From contig JAFUFH010000086.1 in NCBI GenBank assembly GCA_017470005.1, positions 15,881-79,880 on the forward strand: a stretch of 64,000 nucleotides of DNA, given 5' to 3'. A program made the translations under genes and the position numbers. Position 1 is the stretch's first letter. Each line of letters opens with the position of its first letter. The stretch is from Bacilli bacterium. GTDB lineage: Bacteria > Bacillota_I > Bacilli_A > RFN20 > CAG-288. Of this stretch, positions 37,573-54,414 are shown piece by piece. The notes under the pieces were generated by a model that worked only from the letters and a program-made list of their open reading frames with translations, had not been told where the DNA came from and searched no databases.

Positions 37573-37608
37573 AAGTAAAATGGTAGGCAGTTAGCCTACC
37601 ATTTTACC
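37573..37608. terminator. Bidirectional terminator (aaaatggtaggc-agtta-gcctaccatttt)
   Basis: 12-bp stem between the convergent xfp and GH3 genes. Confidence 0.7.
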
Positions 37609-37626: not shown

Positions 37627-40590
37627 TCACTTCTTTATACGAAGCAATACAAAGGTGACAGCAATAGACAAAGCAGCAAGAACGGTGAGAACGATGAAGA
37701 CGATTTCTAAGGTGTTGAGAAGGACAATCCATGCGGGAGTGACATCACGGATGATGATGCCTTCCGCAAGACCATTCATCGCATTAGAGTGAGCAACCAT
37801 GTAGAGCAATCTATGGGTGGCATCTCTCATTTCCCAAGCAAGACCTGCATAAGTATCGGCATCGGCATAAAGCTCTTCCTTGTTGGCTTGGCCATCAGGG
37901 AGATCATTACCATTATAGATACCGGCAGAGAGATTCATGTATTCTTTGTGGAAGAAGTCAGAAACAGCGATACCGCTCATTCCAAATTCTCCTCTTAAGA
38001 CATTCTTGATGAAGCCATGTGCACCAGTCCAAATGGTTCCTAAACGGTTGAAACCGGTCATGACAGAAGCACACTTTCCTTCTTCGATCGCAATCTGGAA
38101 GGGTTTGAGATAGATTTCACGAATGGTTTGTTCATTCGCCCAGGTGTTGACACCTTCTCTATTGGTTTCTTGATCGTTCAAGAAACAGTGTTTCAAGTAG
38201 GAATAGACACCCTTTTTAGCGAGACCTTTAATGACTTCGGAGACAATCTTACCAGAGAGGACAGGGTCTTCAGAATAATATTCGAAGGCTCTACCACCAT
38301 AGATACCTCTATGAATGTTCACAGCAGGTCCATATAAGCCAGAATAACCAGCCCAGAGACAATCTTCACCCCAAGTTAATCCATATTCATAGATCAATTC
38401 TTTGTTGTATGTCGCACTTGCCATGGAGTTAGCGGGATAGGCGATGGGGCTTTCCTTCTTATCGGGGTCATTGTTAGAGACGGCAAGACCTCTGTTGTTG
38501 TTTTCAGAGACGTTGTAGGGCATCATCGGACCAGTGGCACCATTGTGATCGATGGTGACCGGTTTGTTGATACTAGCCACAGCGGCAGTGGAACGAAGAC
38601 CAGCAGAGAGAAGAGAAGCTTGTTCGTCTAAAGTCAACTGATCTAACAATTTCTCCCACTTAGAATCATCATAGGCGATAGCATCGCCATTATCATCCAC
38701 AATCATATCGACTAAGGAATAAGATGTTTCTGTGCTTCCGTAAGTAGGGAAGTCCATTCTTTCATCATCTTCCATGCCGCGATAGTTGTAATAATCAGCA
38801 TCCGCAGCCATGTCGTCATTACCGGTTAACACGACTTGGTTCGCAAGAGCGTTTCCGTCCTTGGTATAACCGAATTTGACGGTTCCTTGCCAGTTATTTC
38901 TGCTGACATAGGTGACATGATTATTTCCAGCAAATTCATATTTGTTGATATCGACATCATCGAATTGATTGGTGATCTCTTGATCGGTGATGGCAAGAGA
39001 ATAGCTGACATCATCAAATTCATCAACGGTAATGCGATGGGTTAAATCGGCTTGACCAACGACATTAGAGCCTTTGGCGGAGAGAATGTTGTTGATGGCA
39101 CTATGAGCGTCTTTTGCTGCAGTGAAGTAATAATTTCCTTCATCGAGAATGTAAGTCAAGGAAGAGTTAGCGTCATAGCTAGCTAATTCGGATTTCTTGA
39201 CAGAAACTTTGAGATTTTGTTTTTCTCCAGGGCCTAATTCTCTCGTCTTAGCAAATTCGACCAAATCGATGGAGCTCTTTTCAATACCGTTTTCAATATC
39301 GTAAGTGGTGTAAGGCTTCTGGATATAGAATTGAACGGATTCTTTACCCGCTTTGCTGGTGGAAGTGTTGGTGACATCCACGCTCAACTGATAATCATCG
39401 CCTTCATCTTCGACTTCAAAATTCGAATAAGTGAAGGTGGAATAACTGAGACCATATCCGAAAGGATAAGAGACCGTATCTCCATAGGAGAAATCACCGA
39501 CATTGGCCCGATTTAAGATTTTATCTTCATAACGGGTCTCAGTATAACGATATCCGTTATAGATACCTTCCTGATAGACGATGTACTTGTTAGAGATCAT
39601 CAAATCAGAAACTTTGGTTCCAGAGTAGGTGTAATCACCAAAGTTGGCATAAACAGGGTTGAGACTGTTGTCTTTGAAGAAGGTGTCCACACTCTTTCCA
39701 GAAGGGTTGACTTTGCCAACTAAGATATCGGCAAAGGATTGTGCACCCACTTCACCTAAAGTCGGAGCCCAAAGAAGAGCGTCGACTCCGAATTCTTCCT
39801 CAAAGTCACACTGGATGGTGTTGGCACTGTTGATGAAGACGACAATCTTCTTCAATGTGCCGGCGTCTTTGAGTTGTTTCATGTGGGAGAGAACATCTCT
39901 CTCTTGAGGAGAAAGAAGCAAATAGTTACCCTTGGTGAGGTCATCTTGACTTCCTTGGGTGATATCTAAGTCTTTTCCTTCACCACCATTTCTACCGACG
40001 ATGAATAAACCGACTTCGGCGGAATTGTTCTTTGCATCGGGCAAAACGCTCCAAGGAGCTTCTTGCACCTTGAAGGAAGCACCGATACCAGAAGAAGCAC
40101 CTCTTCCGTAAGTTTTGTTATTCTTAGCTTCGGTATAGAAATCAAATAAATCTTTGTTTAAGGTAAGACCCGCTTCTTGGAACGCTTTATCTAAAGTGAC
40201 ACAAGAATCCGTGCTAGAAGCGCTAGAACCGGTACCAGAATAGACTAGATCTGCGCTAGTGATAGAGTAAGCGTTGACACTATCGCCACTCTTTAAAGGA
40301 AGGGCGTTGTTTTCATTTCTAAGTAAAGTGATACCTTCGTCAGAAACTTTTTTGGCGACTTCTCTAGCGTGAGCTTTCACTTCCTTGACGGAGTTAAAAT
40401 CAGAAGAATAATAGACCGCGTCTACGGGTTCTCCCTTTTCGTTGACGACTTCCTGTGTCTTAGCACCTAAAGCGTCATTGATGGCTTTGGAGTTTTCTAA
40501 AGCGATGACTCTACCAACAGTTAAGATACCCAAGGTGAGAGCGAAGACGTTGGTGAGGACTTTACTCAAACTGAATAATTTCGGGTTCAT
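37627..40590 (-). CDS. Membrane-anchored glycoside hydrolase family 3 protein with a circularly permuted domain order
   Basis: 987 aa. N-terminal signal anchor. The GH3 C-terminal alpha/beta-sandwich-like region comes first, then an Fn3-like region, then the GH3 catalytic TIM region (LKHCFLNDQE; GEFGMSGIAVSDFF nucleophile Asp). A C-terminal TM helix. AAGGAGG RBS. Confidence 0.8.
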   Translation of the reverse strand: MNPKLFSLSKVLTNVFALTLGILTVGRVIALENSKAINDALGAKTQEVVNEKGEPVDAVYYSSDFNSVKEVKAHAREVAKKVSDEGITLLRNENNALPLKSGDSVNAYSITSADLVYSGTGSSASSTDSCVTLDKAFQEAGLTLNKDLFDFYTEAKNNKTYGRGASSGIGASFKVQEAPWSVLPDAKNNSAEVGLFIVGRNGGEGKDLDITQGSQDDLTKGNYLLLSPQERDVLSHMKQLKDAGTLKKIVVFINSANTIQCDFEEEFGVDALLWAPTLGEVGAQSFADILVGKVNPSGKSVDTFFKDNSLNPVYANFGDYTYSGTKVSDLMISNKYIVYQEGIYNGYRYTETRYEDKILNRANVGDFSYGDTVSYPFGYGLSYSTFTYSNFEVEDEGDDYQLSVDVTNTSTSKAGKESVQFYIQKPYTTYDIENGIEKSSIDLVEFAKTRELGPGEKQNLKVSVKKSELASYDANSSLTYILDEGNYYFTAAKDAHSAINNILSAKGSNVVGQADLTHRITVDEFDDVSYSLAITDQEITNQFDDVDINKYEFAGNNHVTYVSRNNWQGTVKFGYTKDGNALANQVVLTGNDDMAADADYYNYRGMEDDERMDFPTYGSTETSYSLVDMIVDDNGDAIAYDDSKWEKLLDQLTLDEQASLLSAGLRSTAAVASINKPVTIDHNGATGPMMPYNVSENNNRGLAVSNNDPDKKESPIAYPANSMASATYNKELIYEYGLTWGEDCLWAGYSGLYGPAVNIHRGIYGGRAFEYYSEDPVLSGKIVSEVIKGLAKKGVYSYLKHCFLNDQETNREGVNTWANEQTIREIYLKPFQIAIEEGKCASVMTGFNRLGTIWTGAHGFIKNVLRGEFGMSGIAVSDFFHKEYMNLSAGIYNGNDLPDGQANKEELYADADTYAGLAWEMRDATHRLLYMVAHSNAMNGLAEGIIIRDVTPAWIVLLNTLEIVFIVLTVLAALSIAVTFVLLRIKK

Positions 40591-41018
40591 TAGGCGACCT
40601 CCTTCTCTTCTTTTCTAGGAGCGATGTAAAGTCCAAAGTTAGCAAGGACAATCGCAATGAGTTCAAACAAGAGAACGCAAATGAAGACAGGGGAGATATT
40701 GGCGATCGCTTGTAGAGAGATACCATCATAGAAAACCGTAGAAAGATAGAGATAGACATAACGAATGAAGAAAAGGAATCCTAAAAAAGTAAAGATTTCA
40801 TTCGCTAAAGCAGCAAAACGTTCTGTGGGTTTAAAAAAGATTAAACCAAAGAAAAGAACAGCGCCAATCAGTGGGAATAAGAACGGAAGAATGTTGTAAT
40901 AACTGCTTCCCATATATCCACTGATATAGATGATAGAAGCAATCAAAGAGAGAAGGGCAGCGACACAGGGAAGATAAAACCCGCGTATCGTGCGATTCTT
41001 GAAGAATTGAGCAAACAT
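40590..41018 (-). CDS. Small polytopic membrane protein (142 aa, 4 TM helices)
   Basis: GGAGG RBS. Its stop overlaps the start of the downstream GH3 gene by 1 nt. Confidence 0.55.
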   Translation of the reverse strand: MFAQFFKNRTIRGFYLPCVAALLSLIASIIYISGYMGSSYYNILPFLFPLIGAVLFFGLIFFKPTERFAALANEIFTFLGFLFFIRYVYLYLSTVFYDGISLQAIANISPVFICVLLFELIAIVLANFGLYIAPRKEEKEVA

Positions 41019-41076
41019 ATTTTTCCTCCAAATAGAGGAGATAGGAGGGGCTCTCCCTCCTATCTCTCATTGTTTT

Positions 41077-42516
41077 TTAGTAATTTGCGTAAGGATAACC
41101 TTTCACGCCATCCCAATCTAAGACGAAATCATCTGCGGTGAATTTGATGCAGTCGATCAAAGGAGCGTGAGCTTCCATGGTGGTACCGTTGATGCTATCG
41201 GTGTTGTTGGTGATGAGTTCAATGGTGTTGTTACCAGCTTTCAAGTTGATATTACCTAAATTGAAATCGGCGAAAGGAAGAGGAGTGGCGGTAGAATCTT
41301 GCATGGCAGGAACATTGGTGAAGGAGATTTCCGGATAGTTGATTTCTTCGCCATTGACATAGACAGCCCAATTCTCAGCAGTGTAAGAATAATCTTCGAT
41401 GAATTGAGAGAGTCTAGCCACGAAGGTGACACCTTCTTTTTTCACATCGCAGTTGAGCTGGAACTTCAATCCTAAACCCATCTGATAGAGATAAGAGACA
41501 TAACGGTCATTAGAAGCACCGTAATTGCTGTCGTTGATGATACAAGCAGTCTCAGTGGCAGTGCCAGAAAGTCCCTTACCGACGATGCCAGTGAAGTCGA
41601 CATCTTCGGCTTCAAAGATATAAGTTTGTTGTCCGACATATTCGGAAGAAGAACGAACCCAGTTCGCGGTTAAAACGATTCTATCCTCAACAGGTTCATT
41701 AAAGTTATATGCTGCTCCATCCTTGAACCAGCCTCCAAAATCATAGCCCTTTCTGGCGGGTTCAACAGAGATGGCTCTCACCATGTTACCTTTTTCCACA
41801 CGGAGGACTCTACTTTCGGGAATGGCACCATAATATCCGTAATCGAAGGTGACCATCATGATTTCTTTGCCTTCTTCTAACCATTTGGCATTGAGAGTAA
41901 AGGAGGTTTCGATGACGGTGCTTATATCATATTCGAGAGTGAGTTCTTCGTCGGTGAACCAACCATCGAAGACAAATCCAGCTTTGGTAGGTCTATTGGG
42001 AAGCTCTAAGGTCTTTCCTTTTTCGACTTCGACAGGATTGACTTCACTTCCGCCATTGCTGTTGAAGAAGATAGAGATCATCTCTTTGGTAACAGTAACT
42101 TTGAAAGAGACACTCTTTCCACCAAAGGTGGCTTTGATGGTCTTAGAACCGACAGATTTAGAATTTAAAGCGGTGTAGGTGATTCTAGAATCACTCATGT
42201 CGAGCTGCTTCGTGCTCTTATCTTCATAAGTGACTTTTAAGACACCACCGGTAGGATCAAAGCTATCTCCGAGGACATAGCTGACCTTGGTAGGCATCTT
42301 TTCCACAGCGATAGAGGCAACATGCTGATCGCTGACTGTGCCAGTATCATCTGTTTTCCCCGTATCTCCGGTATCTCCGCTAGGATTGACGGTAGTATCG
42401 GCAGTGGTAGGATTACCCCCAGTATTTGTGGTAGGGTTAGGTGTTTCTCCGCAAGAGAAGAGAGCAAGAGAGGCGGAAGAGAGAAAAACAACTTTAAGTA
42501 AATTTCTGAATTTCAT
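41077..42516 (-). CDS. Surface lipoprotein with a Thr-rich linker, a bacterial Ig-like domain, Listeria-Bacteroides (Flg_new) repeats and a C-terminal beta-rich domain
   Basis: MKFRNLLKVVFLSSASLALFSCGE lipobox. GFVFDGWFTDEEL and YDFGGWFKDGAAYNF repeats. AGGAG RBS. The start is at ATG 42516, not the track start. Confidence 0.7.
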   Translation of the reverse strand: MKFRNLLKVVFLSSASLALFSCGETPNPTTNTGGNPTTADTTVNPSGDTGDTGKTDDTGTVSDQHVASIAVEKMPTKVSYVLGDSFDPTGGVLKVTYEDKSTKQLDMSDSRITYTALNSKSVGSKTIKATFGGKSVSFKVTVTKEMISIFFNSNGGSEVNPVEVEKGKTLELPNRPTKAGFVFDGWFTDEELTLEYDISTVIETSFTLNAKWLEEGKEIMMVTFDYGYYGAIPESRVLRVEKGNMVRAISVEPARKGYDFGGWFKDGAAYNFNEPVEDRIVLTANWVRSSSEYVGQQTYIFEAEDVDFTGIVGKGLSGTATETACIINDSNYGASNDRYVSYLYQMGLGLKFQLNCDVKKEGVTFVARLSQFIEDYSYTAENWAVYVNGEEINYPEISFTNVPAMQDSTATPLPFADFNLGNINLKAGNNTIELITNNTDSINGTTMEAHAPLIDCIKFTADDFVLDWDGVKGYPYANY

Positions 42517-42590
42517 GTAATGACTCCTATGTTTTTTAATAAAGCAACAGACCCTAAGCAAGGGCCTGTTGCAAAAGATTTGTAATGGAA

Positions 42591-45500
42591 TTAGGCGACG
42601 TTGAAGGTGACAGTACCAGTGTAGTGATTAGCTCTTGGAGTTCCTCTCATGAACAACCAACCAGCATAGTACATGGTAGTGTAGTAGACCAAGTCAACAT
42701 CGAAGGTGTAAGTGCCAGCGGCTAAGCTACCAGAGAGTTCGACATAGTCGGGAACTTCGTAAGTAGTACGGTTGGCTTTACCCATGACGGTCTTGTTGAC
42801 GACAGTAGAAGTGATGCCATCAGGGAGGTTAGAGATGGTATAAGCGTATTCTGCTTTTTCGACAGCTTTAGAAGCATCGGTGGTGATGATATCTGCAGCG
42901 GTCTTATCTTCGTCTCTGTTGTACCAAGTGCCGTTTTCGGCCTTGTAAGCGTTGACGATAAGGTTGCTACCGATCAAGGTGTAGTAAGCAAGGGCGGGGA
43001 CATCAACCTTCATGGTGAATTTTTCGTTGGCCTTTTCGGTGACGACAGGTTCACCAGTAGCGGCAGCGTTGCCATCGACGTGGATAGCGCTCTTGATGGT
43101 GATTTCGATGTTAGCTTGAGAGGAGACCCAACCATCTAACTTGTAGGATGCAGGAACGGTGACGACACCTTCGTTTTTAGGAGACCCAGTGATCAAACCG
43201 TTCTTGAAGGTTAAACCGGCATCTTTCAAAGTTTGAGTAGCTTCATCGGTAAAGGTGAAGTTACAGTCATCGTTAGTGATCTTGACCGCGTTGTTGACAC
43301 CTCTTTCGACTTCGACCTTGAAGGTCTTACCAGCGATAGCACCATTCTTGATGGCGACAGAGTTGGCTCTGTTGAAGAGGGCTCTCTGACACTTAGAACG
43401 GATACCGAAGTAAAGAGAAGAATCTTCTAAGGTATTCTCAGTAGCTTCTTCATCGGCTTTGACTAAAACATTGTTCTTTGTGGCATCCCAAGTACCATAA
43501 TCAAGGGCGTTCTTGGCATAGCCTTTGGCAGAACCATCTAATTGGTCGCCGCCAGAGAGAGCCATTCTATTGACAGGAACATAGTCCTTGGCCCAAGCGT
43601 CGGTAGAGACAACCGCCTTAGATCCCCATTCATCTCTTAAGAGGAATTGGTTGACAGCGTAAGAGTTGGCGGTGACTTCATATCCGATTCTGTTGAAGGA
43701 GGACATGACACCATTGGAATGACCAACCTTGATGGCCCACTCGAAGGGTTTGAGGTAGCTTTCTCTCATGGTTTGTTCATCGATGAGAGTGATAACTCCG
43801 CCGTAATCGGCTCTGTAAGATTCTTGATCGTTGAGGAAGAAGTGTTTGACTAAAGTGATGACACCTTTATCGGTGGCGCCACGGATACATTCGGCGACAA
43901 ATCTAGCAGAATGCCATCCGTCTTGAGAATAGTATTCGAAGTTACGGCCAGAGAAAGGAGATCTGTGTAAGTTACAAGCAGGACCTGCCCATAAGTTGTT
44001 GGAAGAGAAGATAGCTTCGTTACCAACGAAACGACCCATACGGTAAGCTAAAGTGGTGTTGTAAGTAGCGGCGATGATAGGAGCGGAGGGGAAGAGAGTT
44101 CCGCCAGCGTACTGGATAGGACCATTGGAATAACCATCAGCGGTCTTACCGATCTTATCGATAGCTTGAGAGCCAGGACCTTTGACAGAGTCACCAGCGA
44201 CAAGGGTACACATATCTTCCCAGGAGAGCTGGTTCATGAATTGTTTCCACTTCTGAGATCCCGCATCCTTACCTTCAACAGGTTGACCATCGACGATCTT
44301 GAGATCTTCATAATCGATACCGGCCATATCGGCAAGCATGATGTTGTTATTTGCGTTTTGAGTCCATCCTTCGGGAACCGTAGCGGTGTAATAAGGATCG
44401 GCTTCAGAAACTTCATAGTGGTTGTAGACGTCTTGATCTTCTAACATCTCTAAGACATCATCTGTGACGGTTCTTTCAGCCACGGAAGCGGGAGTAGGTT
44501 GAGTGAGACCACCATCCGCGCCTCTGGAGATCTGATGTTTGAGATATTCATCGGTAGCATAACGATAGATATCATCGTTGGAGAAGATGTTGTTGACATC
44601 TCTACCGGTGAGATAGTCTTTTCTCAACTGGAGGTCGTTCTTGAGAGTTCTAGTCATAGAGAGAACAGGAGTGTGAGAGTCTCTGTTAGCGGTGATAACA
44701 TAATCACCAGCTTCTAATTCATAACCTTCGAAGTTATTGTTGTTCTTATCGTTGTAGTCATAAGAAGCCATATCTTGGGCAATGAATTGGATGGTGACGA
44801 CATCGGATTCACCAGGTTTGAGCAACTTGGTCTTACCGAAGTTGACTAAGTTGTTGCTAGCCTTTTCGATTCCACCCTTCTTATAAGGAGCGGAATAATA
44901 GAGTTGGACGACATCCTTACCAGCGACTTCACCCGTGTTGGTGACTTTGACTTTGGCAGTGATGGTCTGGTTAGGTTGAGAGATTTCGGCAGTGCGTTTG
45001 ACCTCTTCCCATTCCCAAGAGAAAGTGGTGTAAGAAAGACCGAATCCGAAAGGATAAAGAACTTCATTTCTGTACCAGCTTTCTCCCTCGAGTCCACCTA
45101 AATCGGTAGAACGAGTCTCATAGAACTTGTAGCCGTTGTATAAACCTTCACGGTATTCAACTTCAGCGAAGTTGGTGATCTTGCCATTCTTGTCATAAAG
45201 CATGGCGTTCATTCTATCTTTGCCCGAATAGTTCTGAGAGTTGTAAGCGAAGTTGGTCCAAGAAGGATCATGTTTGAAGTTGGCAGTCCAGATGTCAGAG
45301 GTGTGGCCAGAGGGGTTGACCGTACCATCTAAGATTCTACCGATGGCTTCGGTACCATTGTTACCGACACCGCCCACCCAAAGGATGGCATCGACACCTA
45401 AGTTGTCGGGAGTCTTCTCTTCGGCAAGATCCGGGATTTCCATGATGTTGGAAGAGTTGATCAAGACGATGACTTTCTTGAAGTATTGTTTGGCGTGTTT

Positions 45501-46268
45501 GACCAAAGCTCTTTCGTTGTCATCTAATTGAAGGATGTGGTCATCTTCATCGGCGTGATCTTCAACAGAGTGAGTCTTCAAGTCAGCGTTTTCGGTACCG
45601 AAACGAGAGAAGGTTAACACAGCAGCTCCACCGTAAGCATAGTAAGAGGAGATGACGCTAGGAGTGTAGTTCTCCAAAGGAAGCTCATTGTTGATGATGC
45701 CTAAAGTTTGATACTTATTGTATAAAGAGATGGTGGTAGGGTTGACTTTGTAGCCAGCGTGTTGGAAAGCTTTTTCCAAAGTGGAATATTCGATACCGTG
45801 GTTACCAGTGGTACCAGCACCAGATCCACCGCCCGCTGTGACTAGGTTGACGGTATGCATACCTAAGAGTGTGACACTCTTTTCACTTTCAGAGAGAGGG
45901 AGAGCTCCATTCTCGTTCTTGAGAAGGACATCACCTTCTTCTGCGATGTTGACGACTAAGTCTCTAGAGGCCTGTTGTTCATCATCGATGGTGGCGTAGT
46001 CGGGGTAGAATTTACCCTTGGCATCTAAATTACCAGTCTTGGTATCTTCTGCTTGGTAAAGGGATTCTTCTACACCAGGGTTTTCATCTTCCCCAGAAGT
46101 AGTGGTGGAATCACTTGTGCCAGTAGAATCCGTTGCTGTAGTATCCGGATTGATTGTGGTATCTGAAATGGTAGAATCACCACCGGCAGTGGTCGTAGTT
46201 TCAGGATTTCCACAACTTGTCATGAATAATGCAGCAGCTAAGCTGATCAAAGTAATTGATTTTTTCAT
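42591..46268 (-). CDS. Large surface lipoprotein: circularly permuted GH3 glycoside hydrolase with extra C-terminal beta-sandwich domains
   Basis: MKKSITLISLAAALFMTSCG lipobox. A Thr/Ser-rich linker. Catalytic region VKHFFLNDQESYR and AVVSTDAW. It is a paralogue of the 987-aa GH3. The start is at ATG 46268. Confidence 0.8.
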   Translation of the reverse strand: MKKSITLISLAAALFMTSCGNPETTTTAGGDSTISDTTINPDTTATDSTGTSDSTTTSGEDENPGVEESLYQAEDTKTGNLDAKGKFYPDYATIDDEQQASRDLVVNIAEEGDVLLKNENGALPLSESEKSVTLLGMHTVNLVTAGGGSGAGTTGNHGIEYSTLEKAFQHAGYKVNPTTISLYNKYQTLGIINNELPLENYTPSVISSYYAYGGAAVLTFSRFGTENADLKTHSVEDHADEDDHILQLDDNERALVKHAKQYFKKVIVLINSSNIMEIPDLAEEKTPDNLGVDAILWVGGVGNNGTEAIGRILDGTVNPSGHTSDIWTANFKHDPSWTNFAYNSQNYSGKDRMNAMLYDKNGKITNFAEVEYREGLYNGYKFYETRSTDLGGLEGESWYRNEVLYPFGFGLSYTTFSWEWEEVKRTAEISQPNQTITAKVKVTNTGEVAGKDVVQLYYSAPYKKGGIEKASNNLVNFGKTKLLKPGESDVVTIQFIAQDMASYDYNDKNNNNFEGYELEAGDYVITANRDSHTPVLSMTRTLKNDLQLRKDYLTGRDVNNIFSNDDIYRYATDEYLKHQISRGADGGLTQPTPASVAERTVTDDVLEMLEDQDVYNHYEVSEADPYYTATVPEGWTQNANNNIMLADMAGIDYEDLKIVDGQPVEGKDAGSQKWKQFMNQLSWEDMCTLVAGDSVKGPGSQAIDKIGKTADGYSNGPIQYAGGTLFPSAPIIAATYNTTLAYRMGRFVGNEAIFSSNNLWAGPACNLHRSPFSGRNFEYYSQDGWHSARFVAECIRGATDKGVITLVKHFFLNDQESYRADYGGVITLIDEQTMRESYLKPFEWAIKVGHSNGVMSSFNRIGYEVTANSYAVNQFLLRDEWGSKAVVSTDAWAKDYVPVNRMALSGGDQLDGSAKGYAKNALDYGTWDATKNNVLVKADEEATENTLEDSSLYFGIRSKCQRALFNRANSVAIKNGAIAGKTFKVEVERGVNNAVKITNDDCNFTFTDEATQTLKDAGLTFKNGLITGSPKNEGVVTVPASYKLDGWVSSQANIEITIKSAIHVDGNAAATGEPVVTEKANEKFTMKVDVPALAYYTLIGSNLIVNAYKAENGTWYNRDEDKTAADIITTDASKAVEKAEYAYTISNLPDGITSTVVNKTVMGKANRTTYEVPDYVELSGSLAAGTYTFDVDLVYYTTMYYAGWLFMRGTPRANHYTGTVTFNVA

Positions 46269-46420
46269 GTTCTTTGTTTTTCCTTTTTCTGTTTTTTTAT
46301 GAAAATACGGGACAAGATTCCGGTCTATCTCATCCCGATAAGAAAATATCAAAACAGCAAAGAAATGAGTCAATGAAAGTGTGAAAGGGCTTTTTTACAT
46401 CGTGAAATGCACTTTCATCT

Positions 46421-46446
46421 AAAAAAAGTCTCCGCGAAGGAGACTA
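46421..46446 (-). terminator. Terminator overlapping the histidine-kinase stop (agtctcc-gcgaa-ggagact + T7)
   Basis: 7-bp stem with a TTTTTTT tract on the minus strand. Confidence 0.55.
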
Positions 46447-47757
46447 TTCTTGATGGGGTTTTAAGAGATAAATAGAGAGAATGAAGATATCATCTTTTAA
46501 AGAAACATGGATACCGCCCTCATATTTTTCGGCGATCTGTTGAATGCTTCTCATACCGTATCCATGATACCCAGGATCCACCTTCTTTGTGGTCTCTGGT
46601 AACCCGTCTTTGATGATAGGATGTTCGCTAGTGAAGTTGATGGTGTTGATATAGATGAAGTCTCCTTTCTCTTCCATGATGATAGAGATGCACCTCTTTG
46701 AAGATTGCTCAATCTTATCCACCGCTTCAATGGAATTATCGAGAGCATTTCCAAACAGAGAGAAGATATCCACAGGGGACATGAAGGAGAGAACTTGAGC
46801 ATCTCCCATGAAGGTCATGGAGATATTCTTAGCGATACAGGTGAGAGACTTTTCATTGAGAATGGTATCTAAGCCATCGATACCGGTCTGATACATACCG
46901 TCATAAATATCGAGATTCTTTTTGATGTTATCGATCTCTTCTTTGGAGATCTTATTCTCTAAGGCTAAAATTTGATGCTTGAGATCGTGGAATTTGATAT
47001 TGAGAATATCGATGTTTTCTTTTCTTAATTCATATTGCCTTTTGGTGTCTTCAAAGAGTTTCTTTCTGGTTTGACTCTCCGCGGAGACTTGAATGAATTT
47101 GTTTAAGAAGAACATGATGAAGAGAGAGAGGAAACAACAAGTTATCGCGTATAAACTACCAGCGACCGTGTAATAAAGGTTGTCGAAGATAAGTGCTCTT
47201 TGGTAGAAACGGGTGATACCGATACAGATGAGAATGATGATAGAGGAGATGATGATCAGTCTAGGATCATAATTTTCGTAATGTTTTTGTTTTTTTAAGT
47301 AGAAACCCATGGTGAAGAAGAAGAGAAGATAGACGACAATGACAATGATCAGTTCTAAACCGTGAGGAGGATTAAATGTCTTCAATCCTTCATTGAGAGC
47401 AAAGAGTCGATAGACATGATATCCAATGTGTTGAAGGGCGACACCGCCAGAGCAAGAAGATAAGAGAGCAACAAGTGGGATATCAAAGCTGATATACATC
47501 GCGGCCATGGAAACAAAGATGAGCACGAGCAAGAGCAAGAAACGAAGCACGGAAGTATAGGGGCTTGTCATATCCATCTGATAAATCAATAAATAAGAGA
47601 AGTAGGAGATGACCAAACAACAAAGAATCGATAAAGAAAGCCTTAAGGCAAACATCTTTCTTTTAGGAACAAAGAAGAGAAACACGAGTTCTCCTAAGAG
47701 AAGCTCAATCATATAATTGGTGTATTGCCACACCTGCATAAAACTAAAATCGCTCAT
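46444..47757 (-). CDS. GHKL-type sensor histidine kinase of the LytTR-associated (AgrC/VirS-like, HPK10) family, 6-7 TM helices
   Basis: 437 aa. H-box KFHDLKHQILAL, N-box LFGNALDNSIEA, G-box DPGYHGYGMRSI. ATGA overlap with the response regulator. Confidence 0.8.
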   Translation of the reverse strand: MSDFSFMQVWQYTNYMIELLLGELVFLFFVPKRKMFALRLSLSILCCLVISYFSYLLIYQMDMTSPYTSVLRFLLLLVLIFVSMAAMYISFDIPLVALLSSCSGGVALQHIGYHVYRLFALNEGLKTFNPPHGLELIIVIVVYLLFFFTMGFYLKKQKHYENYDPRLIIISSIIILICIGITRFYQRALIFDNLYYTVAGSLYAITCCFLSLFIMFFLNKFIQVSAESQTRKKLFEDTKRQYELRKENIDILNIKFHDLKHQILALENKISKEEIDNIKKNLDIYDGMYQTGIDGLDTILNEKSLTCIAKNISMTFMGDAQVLSFMSPVDIFSLFGNALDNSIEAVDKIEQSSKRCISIIMEEKGDFIYINTINFTSEHPIIKDGLPETTKKVDPGYHGYGMRSIQQIAEKYEGGIHVSLKDDIFILSIYLLKPHQE

Positions 47758-48464
47758 GCTACACCTCCCAAAAACACAGCAAAAGATTTCACGAAGTTTT
47801 TCTTTTGAGAGCGAGAAATCTCAATCTTGATATCATTCTTCAAATGACATTCTGAACCTTTGATGGCCTCGACATAACGCAGATTGACAATGGCTTGTCT
47901 TGAGGCGTAGATGAATTTTTCTTGGCTGACTTTCTTTAAAGCGGAGCCTAAGGAGATATATTCATCTAAATCCCCTTCATTGGTATGATAGGTCACATAG
48001 TGATCATTGACCGAAATGTAATAGATACTCTCACAACGGATAGAATGCATGTCTCCGTTGATATTGATAAGAATACTGGAATTCTTGTTGCGATTTAAAC
48101 GATTCAAAGGACGAGACATCTTCAATAAGAATTCTTCTTTTTGAATCGGTTTAATCAAAAAGTCTAAGGCTTCCACCTCATATCCTTTCAATACAAATTG
48201 GGCCATCTTGGTTTCAAAAATCAATAAAACATTGGAATCGATCGCTCTCAATCGATGAGCGGCAGCGATTCCATCCTCTCCTGGCATTTCAATATCCATA
48301 AAGATAAGGTCGAATTGACATTTAAAATCAAAGAAGAAAGCTTCCGAAGAAGGATATTCGTCGATACAAAAATCGACTCCCCTTTGTGAAGAAACATAAT
48401 CTAAGGCTTGCTTTAGATTTTCGCGTTCTTCTTCTAAGTCGTCAACAATAGCAACATGTATCAT
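47754..48464 (-). CDS. LytTR-family response regulator
   Basis: Receiver domain (IVDD...D) plus a C-terminal LytTR DNA-binding domain (ININGDMHSIRCESIYYISVNDHYVTYHT). Confidence 0.85.
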   Translation of the reverse strand: MIHVAIVDDLEEERENLKQALDYVSSQRGVDFCIDEYPSSEAFFFDFKCQFDLIFMDIEMPGEDGIAAAHRLRAIDSNVLLIFETKMAQFVLKGYEVEALDFLIKPIQKEEFLLKMSRPLNRLNRNKNSSILININGDMHSIRCESIYYISVNDHYVTYHTNEGDLDEYISLGSALKKVSQEKFIYASRQAIVNLRYVEAIKGSECHLKNDIKIEISRSQKKNFVKSFAVFLGGVA

Positions 48465-48571
48465 TTCTTATTACCTGTCTCAATCATAGTGAAAGACAAT
48501 CATTTTTGCAATAAACAAATATTTTTGTAGTAATAAATGCAATGTTTGTATCTTAAAATAAGTAATTTTTG

Positions 48572-48597
48572 CAAAAAAGAGCTCGCGAGGAGCTCTT
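48572..48597 (-). terminator. Terminator after the M6 protease gene (agagctc-gcgag-gagctct + T6)
   Basis: 7-bp stem with a T-run on the minus strand. Confidence 0.6.
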
Positions 48598-48599
48598 CA

Positions 48600-50882
48600 T
48601 TAAGCGATAGAATCAAAGTGAATCGAATAAGAGAAGGTCTTTCCGCAGTTGAATTCCGAATTGTTAAACTGAGCGGAGTAGCTAGATAAAGAGAAGGTGC
48701 TTCCCTTTTGGAAGAAAGAAGAAGCTAACGCTTTATTTTGATTGCTCAACATTCTCTTATCGGCGCTGATGAGACGAATTTCATCCCATGCGTTGGCACT
48801 TTCAGGAAGACTTGTATCATACTTATTCTCTGCTCTTTCTCCCGCTTCGGAATTGCTTATGCCACGGAAGACGCTGTATCTTCCTGTGCTTCTTGCTGCC
48901 GCATCAGGGTCCGTGCACATGGATAAGGCGCCACCAGAATATAACATCAAACGTCCATCCACGTGATAGATTCTTCCTCCCACAGTTTCGATAGGAGATT
49001 GATTATAGCAATCATATCCTTGCTCATAGAGATTGAGATTATTGTAAAGGTCTAAAACCAAATATTCATCGAAAGGATTGAAGACATATTTGTTATCACT
49101 ATTCTTTCTAAGGGTCTTGTCATTGTAAGGGATGACGATGAGAGCATTTCTTTTTTGACAAGAAGGAATCGTGATGGTGCAGTTTCCTGTGACCACATAA
49201 GGAGTGATCCAGTTATATAACATCTTAGAATAGGGATTGTGGTCTCCGTAGTTTTGATCCATCATGTCAAATCCACCCATAGGAGCATAGCCGCTATAAG
49301 AATAAGAATAATAATCGGCAAGACCTAACATGTGACCCGTTTCATGGATACAGACATGGGCGTCACATTCATGATTGACAAAACGACTTTGATATTCACT
49401 TCCATATTGAGAATCCACTAAGAAGGGGAAGGGAATCCATCCATAGTTATTAGTGGTAGGAGAATTGATATTTCCCGTTTGACCAGTGGAATGGTTAAAT
49501 GCCCAAAGCAAATTGCTGTTGCTATCCACTTTATCACTCATTCTCACTAACCACATGCCATCGAGGTAACCATCCGCATTGGAATCGTAATCGGTGGGAG
49601 TGATGTTGTATTTTTCTTGTGCCCAAGTCCATGCGTATTGGACGATAGTGGTGATGTGATTATCTGTGAACTCCTCTACTTTTGTCGGAAGTCCGTTGTA
49701 TCCTTTGATTTGGAAATAATCAGTGACATTTCCGGTGATATTGAGTTGACCAAAGGAAGATTTGTAATAATAAGAGTGGAGGGATTCAAAGTGTAAAGAA
49801 TCGGAGTTTCCAAAGAAAGCTTTATGAATCTTAGACCAGTTATCTTCGGTCATTTGAGCTTCTTCTCCAGGGAAAACAACTGGAACAATCAAGAAGGGAG
49901 TGTCTCCTTTGGTAGGACTGTTGACCTTACCCGTTGCCGCATGTTTGCTCATCCAATCCATGTCACTTTCAATGACCACTTCTTCGGGAGAATAATACCC
50001 TTTATCGGTATTGGACTTGGTAGGGTTAGAAATGGTGACTTGCATCTGATTACTATCTTCATTCCAGACGATGGTGTCATCATCATAGCTGATCGGAGTG
50101 AAGGTGGAATCGGAGATGTTGATGGTAAAGAAAGCAGAGAGTTCTTTCTCATATCCTTGATAAGAGACCGTAACTTTCACACTTCCTGCGGTAGAACAAG
50201 TGTAAGTAGAAGAATAATTTTCGTTACCTACTTTGATGGTCAAATCATCAAAATCAATGAATTCTGAATAATTGGCATCACTTTTGCTATATGCGGTTTT
50301 CTTTGTGATCAGTTGAACTTGTAAACCCGTGAAGTCTAATGCATCACCTACGTGATAATTCAACTTTGTCGGAGCAGTGAGTTGAATGGTTTGATTGAAG
50401 CTAGTGCACTTATCTACAGAGATAGGAATCTCAGAAGAGGTGAAGCCATCTTTACTGACTTCGATAGCAAATTCACCTTCATTCATCAATCTCTCTTCAA
50501 AATTAACTTCTTCTCCGTTGTGAGTCCAGGTGAGAATATAATCATCAATAGCTCGATTGAAGATGACTTTTCCATTCTCCATTCGATATTCGTTGACCAC
50601 CAAGTCTGAGAAATCTAAATGGTCATACTGGTAATAGAAAAGATTCGGAGAGACTTCTACATTCAATCCTTGCTTAACTTCTACAGTAGTGGAGTCATCA
50701 CTCGTGGTGGTAGTGGTAGTTTCAGTTGTGGTTTGATCCTCAGTGGTAGAATCTTCACTAGTAGCTGTAGTATCTTGGGCAGTTGTGGTTTCGTTAGTTT
50801 TTCCACTGACATTGACCACAATTTGACAAGAGCTCAAAGCAAATATAGCTAGAAATGCTAGAGCGAAGGAATGTCTTTTCAT
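48600..50882 (-). CDS. Secreted lipoprotein zinc metalloprotease (M6 / immune inhibitor A-like) with N-terminal Ig-like domains
   Basis: MKRHSFALAFLAIFALSSCQ lipobox. A Thr-rich linker. The HEXXH motif VCIHETGHMLGLADYY. AAGGAG RBS. Its start overlaps the nnr stop. Confidence 0.7.
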   Translation of the reverse strand: MKRHSFALAFLAIFALSSCQIVVNVSGKTNETTTAQDTTATSEDSTTEDQTTTETTTTTTSDDSTTVEVKQGLNVEVSPNLFYYQYDHLDFSDLVVNEYRMENGKVIFNRAIDDYILTWTHNGEEVNFEERLMNEGEFAIEVSKDGFTSSEIPISVDKCTSFNQTIQLTAPTKLNYHVGDALDFTGLQVQLITKKTAYSKSDANYSEFIDFDDLTIKVGNENYSSTYTCSTAGSVKVTVSYQGYEKELSAFFTINISDSTFTPISYDDDTIVWNEDSNQMQVTISNPTKSNTDKGYYSPEEVVIESDMDWMSKHAATGKVNSPTKGDTPFLIVPVVFPGEEAQMTEDNWSKIHKAFFGNSDSLHFESLHSYYYKSSFGQLNITGNVTDYFQIKGYNGLPTKVEEFTDNHITTIVQYAWTWAQEKYNITPTDYDSNADGYLDGMWLVRMSDKVDSNSNLLWAFNHSTGQTGNINSPTTNNYGWIPFPFLVDSQYGSEYQSRFVNHECDAHVCIHETGHMLGLADYYSYSYSGYAPMGGFDMMDQNYGDHNPYSKMLYNWITPYVVTGNCTITIPSCQKRNALIVIPYNDKTLRKNSDNKYVFNPFDEYLVLDLYNNLNLYEQGYDCYNQSPIETVGGRIYHVDGRLMLYSGGALSMCTDPDAAARSTGRYSVFRGISNSEAGERAENKYDTSLPESANAWDEIRLISADKRMLSNQNKALASSFFQKGSTFSLSSYSAQFNNSEFNCGKTFSYSIHFDSIA

Positions 50883-51730
50883 TTGGTTCTCCTTTCTTCT
50901 ATGATTTTTACAATTTCTTCTTTGGCATAAAGAATGTCCACAATGCCAGAAGAATATTGTTTTGCTGCTCTTAAAGCAGCTCTATGTATCATCTCATCCC
51001 CAAAAAGGATGAGGTTTTCTCTTTTCTCTTTCTTTGTTCCATAAGCGAGTAGACCAGCAAGATATCCAGCAAGCCCATCTCCACTTCCCGCCTTAGCTAG
51101 GCCAGGGCAAGGAGGATAACTGCTCTCATACACTTCCCCTTTCTCGTTGACAAGGATAGAGGAAGAACTCTTGAGAAGTATGCTGACACGCTCACTCTTA
51201 CAGAAAGCAATCGTTTCTTCTAAATAATCTTTCGAATCTCTAGATTTCTTATCGACTTGAAGCAGTTTTCTTGCTTCTCCTAAATGAGGAGTCAACAAGA
51301 TATTTCCCTTGTGAGAATGTAAAGCTTCTTTAGAAAGAAGAGATAACCCTGTCGCATCAATGATCAATTCATGCTCGTAAGAGAGTAATAGAGATGTTAA
51401 GAATTCTTGATTCTCTTTGTTTTCTTCCATTCCGTTTCCAAACAAGATACTAGAATACGTTTGATTGAGATCATCCGGATCTTTGGAGAATTCAAAGATT
51501 TGGGTCAGATATAACTTAGAAGCGACGATAGGATAGATTTCTTGAAGAACTTCTACGGCAGTAAATCCAACACCCGAAACTGAGGAAAGAGAAGCGGCGA
51601 GAGAAATGGCGTGAGGATATTTCACGCTTCCTCCGATTAGGCAAGTCTTTCCGTAATCGTTTTTGATGCTATTGTCCTCTCGATTCACATAAAGAAGAGA
51701 GAGGGTATTTTGAAATATTTCGTTTGTCAT
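50879..51730 (-). CDS. nnr: ADP-dependent NAD(P)H-hydrate dehydratase (YjeF C-terminal domain)
   Basis: GKTCLIGGS...LLTPHLGEARKLL...GSGDGLAGYLAGLLA. Confidence 0.8.
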   Translation of the reverse strand: MTNEIFQNTLSLLYVNREDNSIKNDYGKTCLIGGSVKYPHAISLAASLSSVSGVGFTAVEVLQEIYPIVASKLYLTQIFEFSKDPDDLNQTYSSILFGNGMEENKENQEFLTSLLLSYEHELIIDATGLSLLSKEALHSHKGNILLTPHLGEARKLLQVDKKSRDSKDYLEETIAFCKSERVSILLKSSSSILVNEKGEVYESSYPPCPGLAKAGSGDGLAGYLAGLLAYGTKKEKRENLILFGDEMIHRAALRAAKQYSSGIVDILYAKEEIVKIIEERRTK

Positions 51731-52578
51731 TTTTCTTCAGAGAATAACGCCTTGATCTCTTTGGCGTGGTTATCTTTGCACTTGCATCTTTTTTGTTCTT
51801 GTTTAAACTGTCTTTTGATGTGTGTGCGGTTGTGACGAAGAACACTTCGAGTGTATGGGTCGTCTTCTAGCTTGTCATATAATTTCTGTAACACATAGAT
51901 ATGATGACGTACTAAATCCGGACAAGAAGAAAGAGTCGAGCCTTCTCTTTGTCGATAAAGATAGGTGTCATCATTAGCAAAATAAACAGAATTACTGCGA
52001 TAGAAGACTTCCATGATGAACATAAGATCTTCAAAAACAGTGATCTTATATTCAAAATAAACATGATATTTCAAAAGGAAAGAACGTTTGATCAACGTGT
52101 TCCAACAATATCCACAGAAGGTTCTATTGACCACCAACGCTTGTACGGCTTCTCTACTTGTTAACTTTCCTTTTCCAATCGGAGCGACTCTTTTCTCTTT
52201 ATCTCCATAATACAAAGAATGAGCCCCTTGAATAGCTTCAACATCTTGATTCGTGTAGGAATAAAGTTTGGTAAGAGCATCTTTTCTTAACAGATCATCG
52301 CCATCCACAAATAGAACATATTCTCCAGAAGCGTGAAGAATACCTAGATTTCTAGCCATAGAGATCGAGTATGGTTTATCGTAATGGAAATGATAGATCT
52401 TTTCGGGAAATTCTTTTTGATATTTCTCACAAATTTCAAAAGAACCATCCGGACTTGCTGTCTCTACGAGAATGATTTGATAAGGCAACACAAAATCTTG
52501 GTCTAACAAAGACTCAATGCAAGAAGATAAATATTGTCTACTTTCATAGACAGGTACAATGATGGAAATAGCTGTCAT
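51727..52578 (-). CDS. Glycosyltransferase family 2
   Basis: ISIIVPVYESRQYLSSCIESLLDQ...VDGDD (DxD). The start is at ATG 52578, which has TATAAT 10 nt upstream and no SD. The track start is a TTG. Confidence 0.78.
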   Translation of the reverse strand: MTAISIIVPVYESRQYLSSCIESLLDQDFVLPYQIILVETASPDGSFEICEKYQKEFPEKIYHFHYDKPYSISMARNLGILHASGEYVLFVDGDDLLRKDALTKLYSYTNQDVEAIQGAHSLYYGDKEKRVAPIGKGKLTSREAVQALVVNRTFCGYCWNTLIKRSFLLKYHVYFEYKITVFEDLMFIMEVFYRSNSVYFANDDTYLYRQREGSTLSSCPDLVRHHIYVLQKLYDKLEDDPYTRSVLRHNRTHIKRQFKQEQKRCKCKDNHAKEIKALFSEEK

Positions 52579-52623
52579 ATCTAAAAATATTATAAGGCAA
52601 ACTAACAAAAAAGAGGAATAATT

Positions 52624-53328
52624 CTATTCCTCTTCAGAAACAGGGTGAATTCTTTTCTTATATGCGTCAATCATTCGATACAGTCGATATTTACAAGTAG
52701 AGTATGGAAGATTGACAATCTTAGAGATGGTACGAATGGAGTAAGAAGAAAGAAATAACTGGAAGATTTCTCTATCCTGGGAAGGATAAGAAGTTAAGAA
52801 TTGCTCGATATCCACTTTCTGAATGATGTATTTTTGGGGGTTCTCACTTTCTTTATCACACTCGTGAAGGAAACTTTCGTTCTCTAGTCTTATTCGTCTA
52901 CCAAACACCTTTAAATCTAATAGATATCTTTTGGTTTTATTGTAGCGCAATCGCTGTATTTGAAAGAAAAGCATCTTTCTTAATAAATGAACGAATGGGC
53001 CTTGTGTAATCTCATACTTTCTCACCGCCACTTTGCAAGTATCTAACATCAATTGATAGATGTCACTAGCATCATAATGGGTATCTAAAGCCACACGAAA
53101 AGAATAAGCTTTAAACCAACTGTTCAAGCGTTGAAACAACTCGTCAAAAGCTGAGCTGTCTTTCTTAGAGAGGGTAGCAAGCTCATCTAGTCCAACGCCG
53201 ATATATTCGTAACTGATGGGCGGAAATCTCTTATCATATTCCGCCATATTATTTTCTACTCTAATCTGATAAATTCTTTTACTCTCTTCACTGCCTTCAA
53301 TCGCGTAATTTTTGGTTTTGTTTTTCAT
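52624..53328 (-). CDS. Putative divergent sigma-70-family-like transcription factor (region 2 and region 4 HTH-like)
   Basis: 234 aa. The C-terminus IRTISKIVNLPYSTCKYRLYRMIDAYKK resembles a sigma region 4 HTH. The similarity is weak, so the call is tentative. Confidence 0.4.
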   Translation of the reverse strand: MKNKTKNYAIEGSEESKRIYQIRVENNMAEYDKRFPPISYEYIGVGLDELATLSKKDSSAFDELFQRLNSWFKAYSFRVALDTHYDASDIYQLMLDTCKVAVRKYEITQGPFVHLLRKMLFFQIQRLRYNKTKRYLLDLKVFGRRIRLENESFLHECDKESENPQKYIIQKVDIEQFLTSYPSQDREIFQLFLSSYSIRTISKIVNLPYSTCKYRLYRMIDAYKKRIHPVSEEE

Positions 53329-54114: not shown

Positions 54115-54414
54115 GACTGTTCTCCTAACTATTAACAATATATCATGTTTCTTCTTAAACTGGGAAATCCCTTTTTCATAAACAAACATGAAAAGGCCCG
54201 AATTCTTCGACTTTTTCCATTTTTATGTCAAAGGAATGTCAAAAAAATAAGCATTACATATTAACGCAATGTCACTTTGTTTTCAACAAAAGGAAATCTT
54301 TGACAAAAAGAGAAAAGGAATCCATTCCATTCTTTAAGAGACATTAATCTCCCTAAGAGAAGAGAGAATGACAAATGAGAGAAAATCCTTTCTAAAATAG
54401 TTTATAATAAATAC

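Follow-up and report, generated by a model that had tools for sequence, protein, structure and literature searches.

Does the two-component system encoded in a stretch of DNA from an uncultured Bacilli bacterium control the surface enzymes encoded around it, and if so, which of them and in response to what? The stretch is 64 kb of a metagenome-assembled genome (MAG) and is called the window; positions are counted from its first letter. A preliminary description had placed an AgrC/VirS-like kinase and a LytTR response regulator inside a 13-kb same-strand block of genes for secreted or anchored hydrolases (37627-50882), and had proposed that the kinase, having no autoinducer gene nearby, senses an exogenous signal to control the block. 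We found that positions 37627-48511 are probably one copy of a module conserved in Firmicutes of the gut and rumen, in which a LytTR two-component pair is joined to an operon for membrane-tethered surface exo-beta-glycosidases of family GH3. The shared strand of the 13-kb block was correct, and its status as a conserved unit was not, as judged by synteny in relatives. The coordinates given for the open reading frames (ORFs) proved accurate, every one on the minus strand, and the gene inventory, once corrected as described below, is essentially right. The features of the module are as follows (aa, amino acids; PWM, position weight matrix; RBS, ribosome-binding site).

48483-48511, minus: sigma-A-type promoter of the two-component genes (TTGCAA, 17 nt, TATGAT; consensus scan)
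47754-48464, minus: response regulator, 236 aa, REC and LytTR domains (Pfam)
46444-47757, minus: histidine kinase, 437 aa, HATPase_c_5 (Pfam and hydrophobicity scan)
46427-46445, minus: terminator after the kinase gene (7-bp stem, U7; -11.1 kcal/mol, z = -2.8)
46377-46410, minus: predicted LytTR operator, two direct repeats (PWM rank 1 and conservation)
46345-46373, minus: promoter of the GH3 operon (-35 TTGACT, 17 nt, -10 GATATT)
46308-46337, minus: 5'-leader hairpin of the GH3 operon, then UAUUUU (-15.1 kcal/mol)
42591-46268, minus: GH3a, 1225-aa lipoprotein, permuted GH3 (Pfam, lipobox)
42544-42572, minus: 12-bp hairpin after GH3a with a poor U-tract, UUUAUUAAA (-21.9 kcal/mol)
41077-42516, minus: lipoprotein with Big_3 and Listeria-Bacteroides repeats, here the Big3 gene (Pfam, lipobox)
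41038-41066, minus: 12-bp hairpin after the Big3 gene, no U-tract, abutting the RBS of the small gene
40590-41018, minus: small membrane protein, 142 aa, about four hydrophobic segments
37627-40590, minus: GH3b, 987-aa permuted GH3 beta-glycosidase (Pfam)
37575-37607: 14-bp bidirectional terminator between GH3b and a convergent phosphoketolase gene (-22.2 kcal/mol, z = -6.9)

The two-component pair is linked to GH3 genes across Firmicutes

The kinase was taken as the most specific marker for finding related loci. Five kinase homologs (39-65% identity) gave a first set of six loci, two of them near-duplicates of one contig, and a scan with the kinase alignment at one genome per species added 79 more. 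The full set has 85 loci (84 non-redundant), with kinases 30-65% identical, from Oscillospiraceae, Gemmiger, Christensenellaceae, Lachnospiraceae, Blautia, Robinsoniella, Erysipelotrichaceae and Bacilli MAGs. All of the first six encode the regulator, the kinase, a membrane protein of 131-164 aa and a permuted GH3 enzyme of about 1000-1100 aa, either in the order regulator-kinase-small protein-GH3 or in the order small protein-GH3-regulator-kinase. The closest relative, a Bacilli MAG locus (L001) whose kinase is 65% identical, has the same gene order as the window from the regulator to GH3b.

With GH3b as the tblastn query, we found a homolog no more than 3 kb from the pair, and always on the same strand, in 73/84 loci (58 downstream, 15 upstream). 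Among the other 11, the GH3 gene is at 3-4 kb in two, three lack one despite adequate flanks, and six contigs are too short. N- and C-terminal hydrophobic segments occur in nearly all partner GH3 proteins. The gene for the small protein, which has about four predicted transmembrane (TM) segments, precedes GH3 in the half of the family nearest to the window; the remoter half lacks it. Beyond these genes we saw no recurrent neighbour: in 140 neighbour ORFs from about 80 loci, no Pfam family appears more than four times. Hence, this synteny, in two gene orders, bears out the tie that the preliminary description drew between the two-component system and the GH3, Ig-like and small-membrane-protein genes.

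On one contig (L005/L006, 652-20205), three pairs of a HATPase_c_5 kinase and a LytTR regulator lie within 21 kb; one adjoins a GH20b-like gene, and one adjoins small-protein and GH3 genes, its called regulator being 172 aa with a receiver domain only. The kinase family seems to be expanding in parallel with glycosidases.

A predicted LytTR operator precedes the GH3 operon

De novo discovery upstream of the small-protein and GH3 genes of the related loci, which left aside the window and L001, returned the motif GCAATTC[GA][CT][GT]CTG twice, 20-21 bp apart, in 27 loci. We scanned the PWM from these 27 loci over the window (127,932 positions) and found its top match at 46410-46377 on the minus strand, with a score of 17.1 (runner-up 12.2), the sole position reaching 17. 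The prior chance that the top site would fall in this 176-bp spacer on the correct strand is about 0.0014. The repeats, GCATTTCACGATG (46410-46398) and CCCTTTCACACTT (46389-46377), are 21 bp apart from start to start, with 9-bp cores and a 12-nt spacer. The second ends 3 nt upstream of the -35 element of the GH3 operon, and the repeat centres lie at about -67 and -46 relative to the inferred transcription start. As a predicted site, it has the layout of a LytTR operator: two repeats of about 9 bp, a spacer of about 12 bp and a position upstream of a -35 element. The family core, ACA[AG]TTCGC (ACAGTTCGC/ACAATTCGC), is close to what we take to be the LytTR consensus.

The operator counterpart in L001 is the top-scoring site of that locus. 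In the window, the operator lies within a 43-nt island that is 36/43 (84%) identical to L001 and contains TTTCAC-type 9-mers exactly 21 bp apart; the remainder of the spacer has diverged. The -35 element is degenerate in L001 (TCCACT), as would be expected of an activator-dependent promoter. In the subgroup L002-L041, we scanned 32 loci with their relatives omitted from the training set. The top site of the whole locus (about 17 kb, both strands) falls in the GH3-operon promoter in 19/32; in four more it precedes the regulator gene by about 100 bp. The PWM scan found no comparable operator in the window upstream of the Big3, small-protein, GT2, sigma or rlmB genes.

The preliminary description had proposed a search for paired repeats in the spacers on both sides of the two-component genes. 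They are present in 46269-46443, where the best match of the window is conserved in L001; in 48465-48599 there is a sigma-A-type promoter only and no LytTR box. Both hexamers of this promoter are kept in L001, and no repeat pair accompanies it (best score in 48465-48640, -5.4). Hence, the window has no autoinduction loop. Four copies of T[GA]CAAA[AC]AT in 48510-48573 were considered as LytTR boxes and rejected; the alignment with L001 keeps just the -35 (TTGCAA) and -10 (TATGAT) elements, and the PWM score is the same -5.4.

The relatives show two further operator arrangements. In five loci (L003, L016, L033, L063, L067), the strongest repeat pair lies about 93-118 bp upstream of the regulator gene, a pair absent from the window and L001, and its placement implies positive autoregulation in those loci. 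In a distant kinase subgroup (L044, L045, L047, L049, L053, L055, L059, L066), the repeat upstream of GH3 reads (A/T)NTTTACG(A/C)C at the same 21-bp spacing, which suggests that regulator and operator co-diversified within the module family.

The GH3 operon may be one transcript

Each sub-block had been said to have its own terminator. This holds for two of four: the terminators after the protease and kinase genes are canonical, and the hairpins after GH3a and the Big3 gene lack a proper U-tract. The hairpin after GH3a is probably leaky, and read-through of the one after the Big3 gene is likely. The spacers that follow these two genes (74 and 58 nt) are too short for promoters. The small-protein stop and the GH3b start overlap by 1 nt, and the two genes are predicted to be translationally coupled. 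At the leader position of the GH3 operon in L001 (about 4170-4225), there is also a hairpin with a U-run. The leader hairpin may stabilise the mRNA 5' end or act as an attenuator, a second control layer.

The kinase is of the AgrC-type class with a conserved membrane domain

The regulator has Pfam Response_reg (53 bits, cutoff 30.2; 4.5e-14) and LytTR (56.3 bits, cutoff 22.6; 4e-15) domains, both above cutoff, in agreement with the preliminary description, and is 64% identical to its L001 ortholog. Its top NCBIfam matches, LytR (8.5e-21) and BtsR (1.7e-14), are both far under cutoff. The kinase start overlaps the regulator stop by 4 nt. HATPase_c_5 (74.4 bits, cutoff 22; 7.3e-21) is the sole Pfam domain of the kinase at E<=0.001, and the kinase has no NCBIfam match. 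We found six strong hydrophobic segments and a weaker seventh (residues 94-117) and no extracellular domain. The H-box is FHDLKH, and its H257 is invariant across 39 homologs. The genes thus encode both parts of a two-component system, a REC-LytTR regulator and a polytopic HATPase_c_5 kinase with an H-box histidine.

By its predicted domain content, the kinase is of the AgrC-type (HPK10) class. The profile of the kinase family, searched against solved structures, finds AgrC (4BXI) best at E=0.0025, with similarity only in the ATP-binding domain; the single kinase sequence finds no relative at E<=0.01. Hence, of the AgrC/VirS-like kinase with seven TM segments that had been described, the HATPase_c_5 domain stands, the likeness to AgrC holds at the level of the family only, and the seventh segment is weak.

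Within the membrane domain, Q109 and H110 are invariant in the 39-sequence alignment. Across 85 kinases, H110 is kept in 98% and Q109 in 87%, both within the weakly hydrophobic segment 94-117. Characterised HATPase_c_5/HPK10 kinases mostly bind peptides, and the sensor domains of peptide receptors are hypervariable. A membrane domain so strongly conserved speaks for a ligand or partner shared by the family rather than for hypervariable recognition of peptides.

The GH3 enzymes are permuted and surface-anchored

Two GH3 enzymes had been recognised at 42591-46268 and 37627-40590, and Pfam agrees, with the correction that the domain order is permuted in both (GH3_C, Fn3-like, GH3_N). The domains span residues 87-347, 417-491 and 719-880 in GH3b and 149-415, 487-565 and 754-927 in GH3a, which has a C-terminal extension of about 300 aa. 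Translation of GH3a truly begins at 46268 (ATG) and not at 46373 (TTG); the protein starts with a lipoprotein signal, MKKSITLISLAAALFMTSCG (MKKSITL...TSCG), with the lipobox FMTSC. GH3a is 80% identical (BLASTP) to an L001 ortholog in the same position, and GH3a and GH3b are paralogs, 30% identical.

The closest solved structure to GH3b is Bgl3B of Thermotoga neapolitana (2X40, 1e-70); the match to the permuted GlyA1 (5K6L), whose barrel is at chain residues 545-712, is 2e-59. GIAVSDF of GH3b aligns with GFVMSDW of Bgl3B, and GGEGKD with SGEGYD, so the nucleophile and acid/base motifs are retained; VVSTDAW and GTENAD of GH3a align to the same motifs. We take the catalytic residues of Bgl3B to be the nucleophile Asp and the acid/base Glu of these motifs. 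In domain order and in catalytic Asp/Glu motifs, both enzymes belong to the permuted-topology GH3 subfamily.

GH3b has TM segments at residues 15-31 and 963-979, an N-terminal signal sequence and a C-terminal anchor. Its anchor (window 37627-37740) reads TPAWIVLLNTLEIVF and is not a generic hydrophobic tail. In the GH3 anchor helix, a juxtamembrane TP-x-W is conserved, and eight residues deeper there is Asp or Glu in 36/61 homologs and Asn or Gln in nine more.

The Ig-like/Listeria-Bacteroides-repeat lipoprotein of the preliminary description is confirmed by Pfam, which finds Flg_new (4.7e-22; two Listeria-Bacteroides repeats) and Big_3 (1.2e-8), followed by a C-terminal domain of no assigned type. 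Its lipobox is LFSC, and its L001 ortholog is 65% identical. The small membrane protein was also correctly recognised; it has 142 aa and about four hydrophobic segments. It has no Pfam or NCBIfam match, and 27 aligned members of its family lie directly upstream of a GH3 gene in related loci. We considered whether the extra N-terminal TM segments of Lachnospiraceae GH3 proteins are a fusion with this protein and rejected the idea, as they (NVEVAWEDVISV...) have no resemblance to the family.

Three lipoproteins of the region (48600-50882, residues 27-66; 42591-46268, residues 20-60; and 41077-42516) have Thr/Ser/Asp-rich low-complexity linkers after the lipobox Cys, one of them with a weak 'New_glue' score. 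The linkers may be extended stalks that keep the enzymes off the membrane.

No pheromone gene was found beside the module

We found no AgrB (PF04647) in the 50 window ORFs scanned against Pfam, and no ABC/C39 exporter and no RBS-bearing ORF with a double-glycine leader anywhere in the window. The spacers flanking the two-component genes and the GH3 operon hold no small RBS-bearing ORF; the sole such ORF, at 54261-54374, is in the rlmB/dnaE promoter region and was left unchecked for AgrD-like features. The Pfam annotations of the six related loci of the first set list no AgrB. It is not recurrent in the 140 neighbour ORFs as seen in their 25 most frequent families, so a single AgrB is possible. 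Hence, the earlier report that the flanks have no precursor peptide or AgrB gene can be extended, for AgrB and double-glycine leaders, to the rest of the window.

The accompanying statement that LytTR systems usually pair with AgrB/AgrD was too strong. LytSR, BtsSR, AlgZR and VirSR are not known to have adjacent peptide genes, and in this kinase family the absence is the rule. The lack of a pheromone gene is normal for the module and not an oddity of the window.

The protease operon upstream is separate

The genes upstream of the two-component pair are as follows.

53383-54189, minus: SpoU/RlmB methylase
52624-53328, minus: sigma-70-family protein (region 4 the sole Pfam part; weak SigW/ECF-like matches, 40 bits)
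52635-52610, minus: hairpin and U-run
51727-52608, minus: GT2
50879-51730, minus: NAD(P)H-hydrate dehydratase (Nnr)
48600-50882, minus: 760-aa lipoprotein, M6-like protease (Big_3, HETGHMLGLAD, sub-threshold M6 domain)
48598-48576, minus: terminator after the protease gene (9-bp stem, U6)

The protease start overlaps the Nnr stop. Hence, the protease gene is part of the upstream operon, in which the preliminary description had grouped it with the sigma-like, GT2 and Nnr genes. The product had been called an M6 metalloprotease lipoprotein. The lipoprotein part and the HETGH motif stand, and the M6 assignment is weak: TIGR03296 (M6) scores 82.3 bits against a cutoff of 110.8, with the motif HETGHMLGLAD present, and Pfam Peptidase_M6 has no match at E<=0.001.

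Queries with the protease, Nnr, GT2 and sigma proteins matched none of the 85 loci, and upstream of its regulator L001 has an AAA_14/DUF4143 gene and no protease. The inclusion of the protease and the sigma, GT2 and Nnr genes in the regulon did not hold up, as they are never linked to the kinase family, have no repeat site and are set apart by a strong terminator. Hence, the M6-like protease and the sigma, GT2 and Nnr genes are unrelated neighbours, not parts of the module.

The sigma-70-family gene directly follows the SpoU/RlmB methylase gene, an order that presumably resembles the rlmB...sigH arrangement of Bacillus, and its product may be a divergent SigH-like factor.

Proposed control of the GH3 operon and its alternatives

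We propose that the kinase and regulator are transcribed constitutively from their own sigma-A promoter and that an extracellular or membrane-proximal cue would lead the kinase to phosphorylate the regulator. A regulator dimer would then bind the direct repeats at 46410-46377, beside a weak -35 element, and activate transcription. A single transcript would carry GH3a, the Big3/Listeria-Bacteroides-repeat lipoprotein, the 142-aa 4-TM protein and GH3b, with the internal hairpins, which lack U-tracts, read through. Taken together, synteny and the predicted operator make it likely that the phosphorylated LytTR regulator activates this GH3a-Big3/Flg-4TM-GH3b transcript, although we infer the binding, the activation, the co-transcription and the signal. 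The cue is probably linked to beta-linked oligosaccharides or glycosides, as substrates or products of the enzymes, and not to a local peptide pheromone; we favour beta-linked oligosaccharides because GlyA1 prefers short cello-/xylo-oligosaccharides. That the kinase senses an exogenous glycan, as first suggested, is plausible.

Several observations weigh against this proposal. The score of 17.1 is not significant alone, since the maximum per 64 kb of Markov-shuffled sequence has a mean of 14.0 (standard deviation 2.5) and a 95th percentile of 18.3; the argument for the operator therefore rests on its rank, position, strand and conservation. The second of its repeats, at 4.4 bits, is weak. Directly upstream of the genes for the small protein and GH3b, the pair whose linkage is ancestral, there is neither a promoter nor a repeat site, so that their control hinges on transcription passing two stable hairpins. 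The module has no consistently linked sugar transporter (ABC_tran occurs in only 3/140 neighbour ORFs), an unusual trait in a locus for nutrient acquisition. Nor is a 7-TM kinase with short loops only an obvious receptor for sugars. In the source genome, the search for autoinducer genes covered the 64-kb window, and an unlinked agrBD elsewhere would escape it.

Could the pair simply be an orphan two-component system beside glycosidase genes? Linkage in 73/84 loci, in two gene orders, and conservation of the repeat operator leave chance adjacency a negligible probability. A regulon of the whole 13 kb, in which the system also governs the M6 protease and possibly the sigma/GT2/Nnr operon, draws on the adjacency of the genes on one strand and on the fact that four large products are lipoproteins or membrane-anchored. 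It is nevertheless very unlikely: homologs of the protease, Nnr, GT2 and sigma genes occur in 0/85 loci, with the AAA_14/DUF4143 gene there in L001; the protease belongs to the upstream operon and is followed by a terminator with a 9-bp stem and U6; and repeat-pair scores upstream of the protease operon are at most 3.6. Peptide quorum sensing of the VirSR kind would need agrBD- or comC-type genes unlinked to the pair, with the surface glycosidases as density-regulated public goods. The HPK10-class kinase, the AgrC structure as best solved match of its family profile, the standing of secreted enzymes as classic quorum-sensing targets and the view of the genome through 64 kb only are all consistent with it. 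We consider it improbable, however, as these 64 kb hold no AgrB, C39/ABC exporter or RBS-bearing double-glycine or AgrD-like ORF, and AgrB does not recur in the 140 neighbour ORFs taken from about 80 loci. In addition, tight and order-independent linkage to one enzyme family across Firmicutes classes points to a substrate-specific circuit rather than one that reads density, and conservation of the membrane domain is high (H110 is kept in 98% of 85 kinases), in contrast to the hypervariable sensor domains of peptide receptors.

A further possibility concerns how the cue would be sensed, with the kinase reading the state of the anchored GH3 enzyme through its C-terminal helix, the 4-TM protein or both. 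This would suit a kinase without an extracellular domain and a module without a linked transporter. The partner GH3 keeps its C-terminal TM helix in nearly all loci, with the TP-x-W and an intramembrane Asp/Glu (36/61, and Asn/Gln in nine more) that are unusual for a passive anchor, and the closer relatives share a conserved 4-TM protein whose gene is coupled in translation to GH3. Against this, the Asp/Glu of the helix does not covary with the kinase (R183, H110 and Q109 are constant with or without the acid), the small protein is missing in the distant half of the family, and GH3a, the first induced enzyme in the window, is a lipoprotein without such a helix. We hold it as a tentative and rather unlikely idea. 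By analogy, the GH3 enzyme and the 4-TM protein might dock on the kinase in the membrane and report substrate occupancy or turnover, a Bce-like glycan 'flux sensor' built on a glycosidase. BceS relies on BceAB, and DcuS on DctA, in a manner that we liken to this coupling.

Relation to known systems

The association has a precedent in Butyrivibrio proteoclasticus B316: Kelly et al. (2010, PMC2914790) noted LytTR regulators close to secreted GH3 enzymes that carry a TM helix at the C terminus. In a supplementary table of that paper, the polysaccharide utilization locus (PUL) PUL7 has a LytTR regulator, a kinase, Bgl3A and a hypothetical transmembrane protein (PMC2914790). The B. proteoclasticus locus is like the module in its LytTR regulator, kinase, anchored GH3 beta-glucosidase and PUL7 transmembrane protein, and Lachnospiraceae loci of the kinase family are among L021-L082. 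The observation of 2010 is one sentence on one genome, with no operator, kinase family, cross-taxon survey or experiments (PMC2914790). The window differs from it in coming from an uncultured Bacilli MAG and in an operon with two gains, a further GH3 enzyme that is a lipoprotein and a lipoprotein of the Ig-like kind. A literature search found no functional study of the LytTR-GH3 association. Hence, the association was noted in 2010, an Agr-class system dedicated to a surface GH3 was uncharacterised before, and the machinery is not of a new kind.

The module resembles Agr, ComDE, BlpRH and PlnBCD in its HPK10 polytopic kinase, its REC-LytTR regulator and its direct repeats about 21 bp apart that abut the -35 element. 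It differs from Agr-type systems in that the 64-kb window has no AgrB, AgrD, double-glycine peptide, exporter or autoregulatory boxes, and the target is a glycosidase operon. VirSR of Clostridium perfringens reportedly combines an AgrC-like kinase with a LytTR-type regulator, has no adjacent peptide genes and controls secreted hydrolases and toxins through paired direct repeats; VirS is said to respond to an AgrBD-derived peptide encoded elsewhere. No such peptide dependence is indicated for the module, and its conserved target is GH3. LytSR and BtsSR (YpdAB) are also similar: their LytTR regulators work without a peptide signal and control membrane-protein or transport genes next to them. However, LytS and BtsS kinases have 5TM-Lyt, GAF and His_kinase (PF06580) domains, and the window kinase, with only HATPase_c_5, falls outside this group.

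A gram-positive PUL is reported to join a glycoside hydrolase, a transcriptional regulator and a carbohydrate transporter in one locus. Between 35167 and 54189 there is no transporter, which sets the module apart from such loci. A GPH-type MFS_2 sugar transporter (22633-24558, minus) and a GH77 4-alpha-glucanotransferase (253-1773, minus) are encoded elsewhere in the window, and in L002 and L003 an MFS_2 gene lies 1.3 kb downstream of GH3, with an AraC regulator between. A LytTR response regulator and a histidine kinase are mentioned at the Roseburia locus Ros-7 by Sheridan et al. (2016, PMC5320581).

Established members of the permuted GH3 subfamily are GlyA1 (PDB 5K6L, PMC5104943) and BrGH3A (PMC11233000), of which GlyA1 is described as a broad beta-glucosidase/beta-xylosidase acting on short oligosaccharides (PMC5104943). 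The window enzymes share with both the order of alpha/beta sandwich, fibronectin type III domain and TIM barrel, and a gut or rumen provenance. They differ in that GH3a is lipid-anchored, GH3b is TM-anchored and both are accompanied by a dedicated two-component system; the two abstracts do not treat regulation.

In at least 73 loci across many families, the module would dedicate an AgrC/LytTR-type system to a surface beta-glycosidase. To our knowledge, far less is understood of how gut and rumen Firmicutes regulate glycan use than of how Bacteroidetes do, and AgrC/LytTR systems have been treated almost exclusively as peptide quorum sensors. A predicted operator is now available, GCAATTC[GA][CT][GT]CTG twice, 20-21 bp apart, and cultured carriers of the module include Robinsoniella peoriensis (CCUG 48729, locus L077), Gemmiger sp. 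An194 (L014) and B. proteoclasticus. If the proposal is true, a non-peptide input class would be added to the Agr-type kinase family, the annotation of permuted GH3 genes in metagenomes would have a regulatory marker, and the engineering of anaerobes could draw on a compact pair of inducible promoter and regulator. The enzyme-coupled flux sensor, if true, would be the first non-peptide input mechanism for HPK10/Agr kinases.

Other features of the window

Four further ORFs have no Pfam match at the thresholds used: 61439-63391 (plus, 650 aa), 9894-10793 (minus, 299 aa), 9522-9890 (minus, 122 aa) and 3410-3802 (minus, 130 aa). Two large cyclic di-GMP proteins are encoded divergently at 3679-7374 (minus, 1231 aa, EAL and GGDEF) and 7449-9479 (plus, 676 aa, EAL), each with a long N-terminal region without a Pfam match. 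Genes for formamidopyrimidine-DNA glycosylase (Fpg) and dephospho-CoA kinase (CoaE) are usually separate neighbours. At 59968-61350 (plus), we found a single 460-aa ORF with Fpg domains and a CoaE domain, an apparent fusion.

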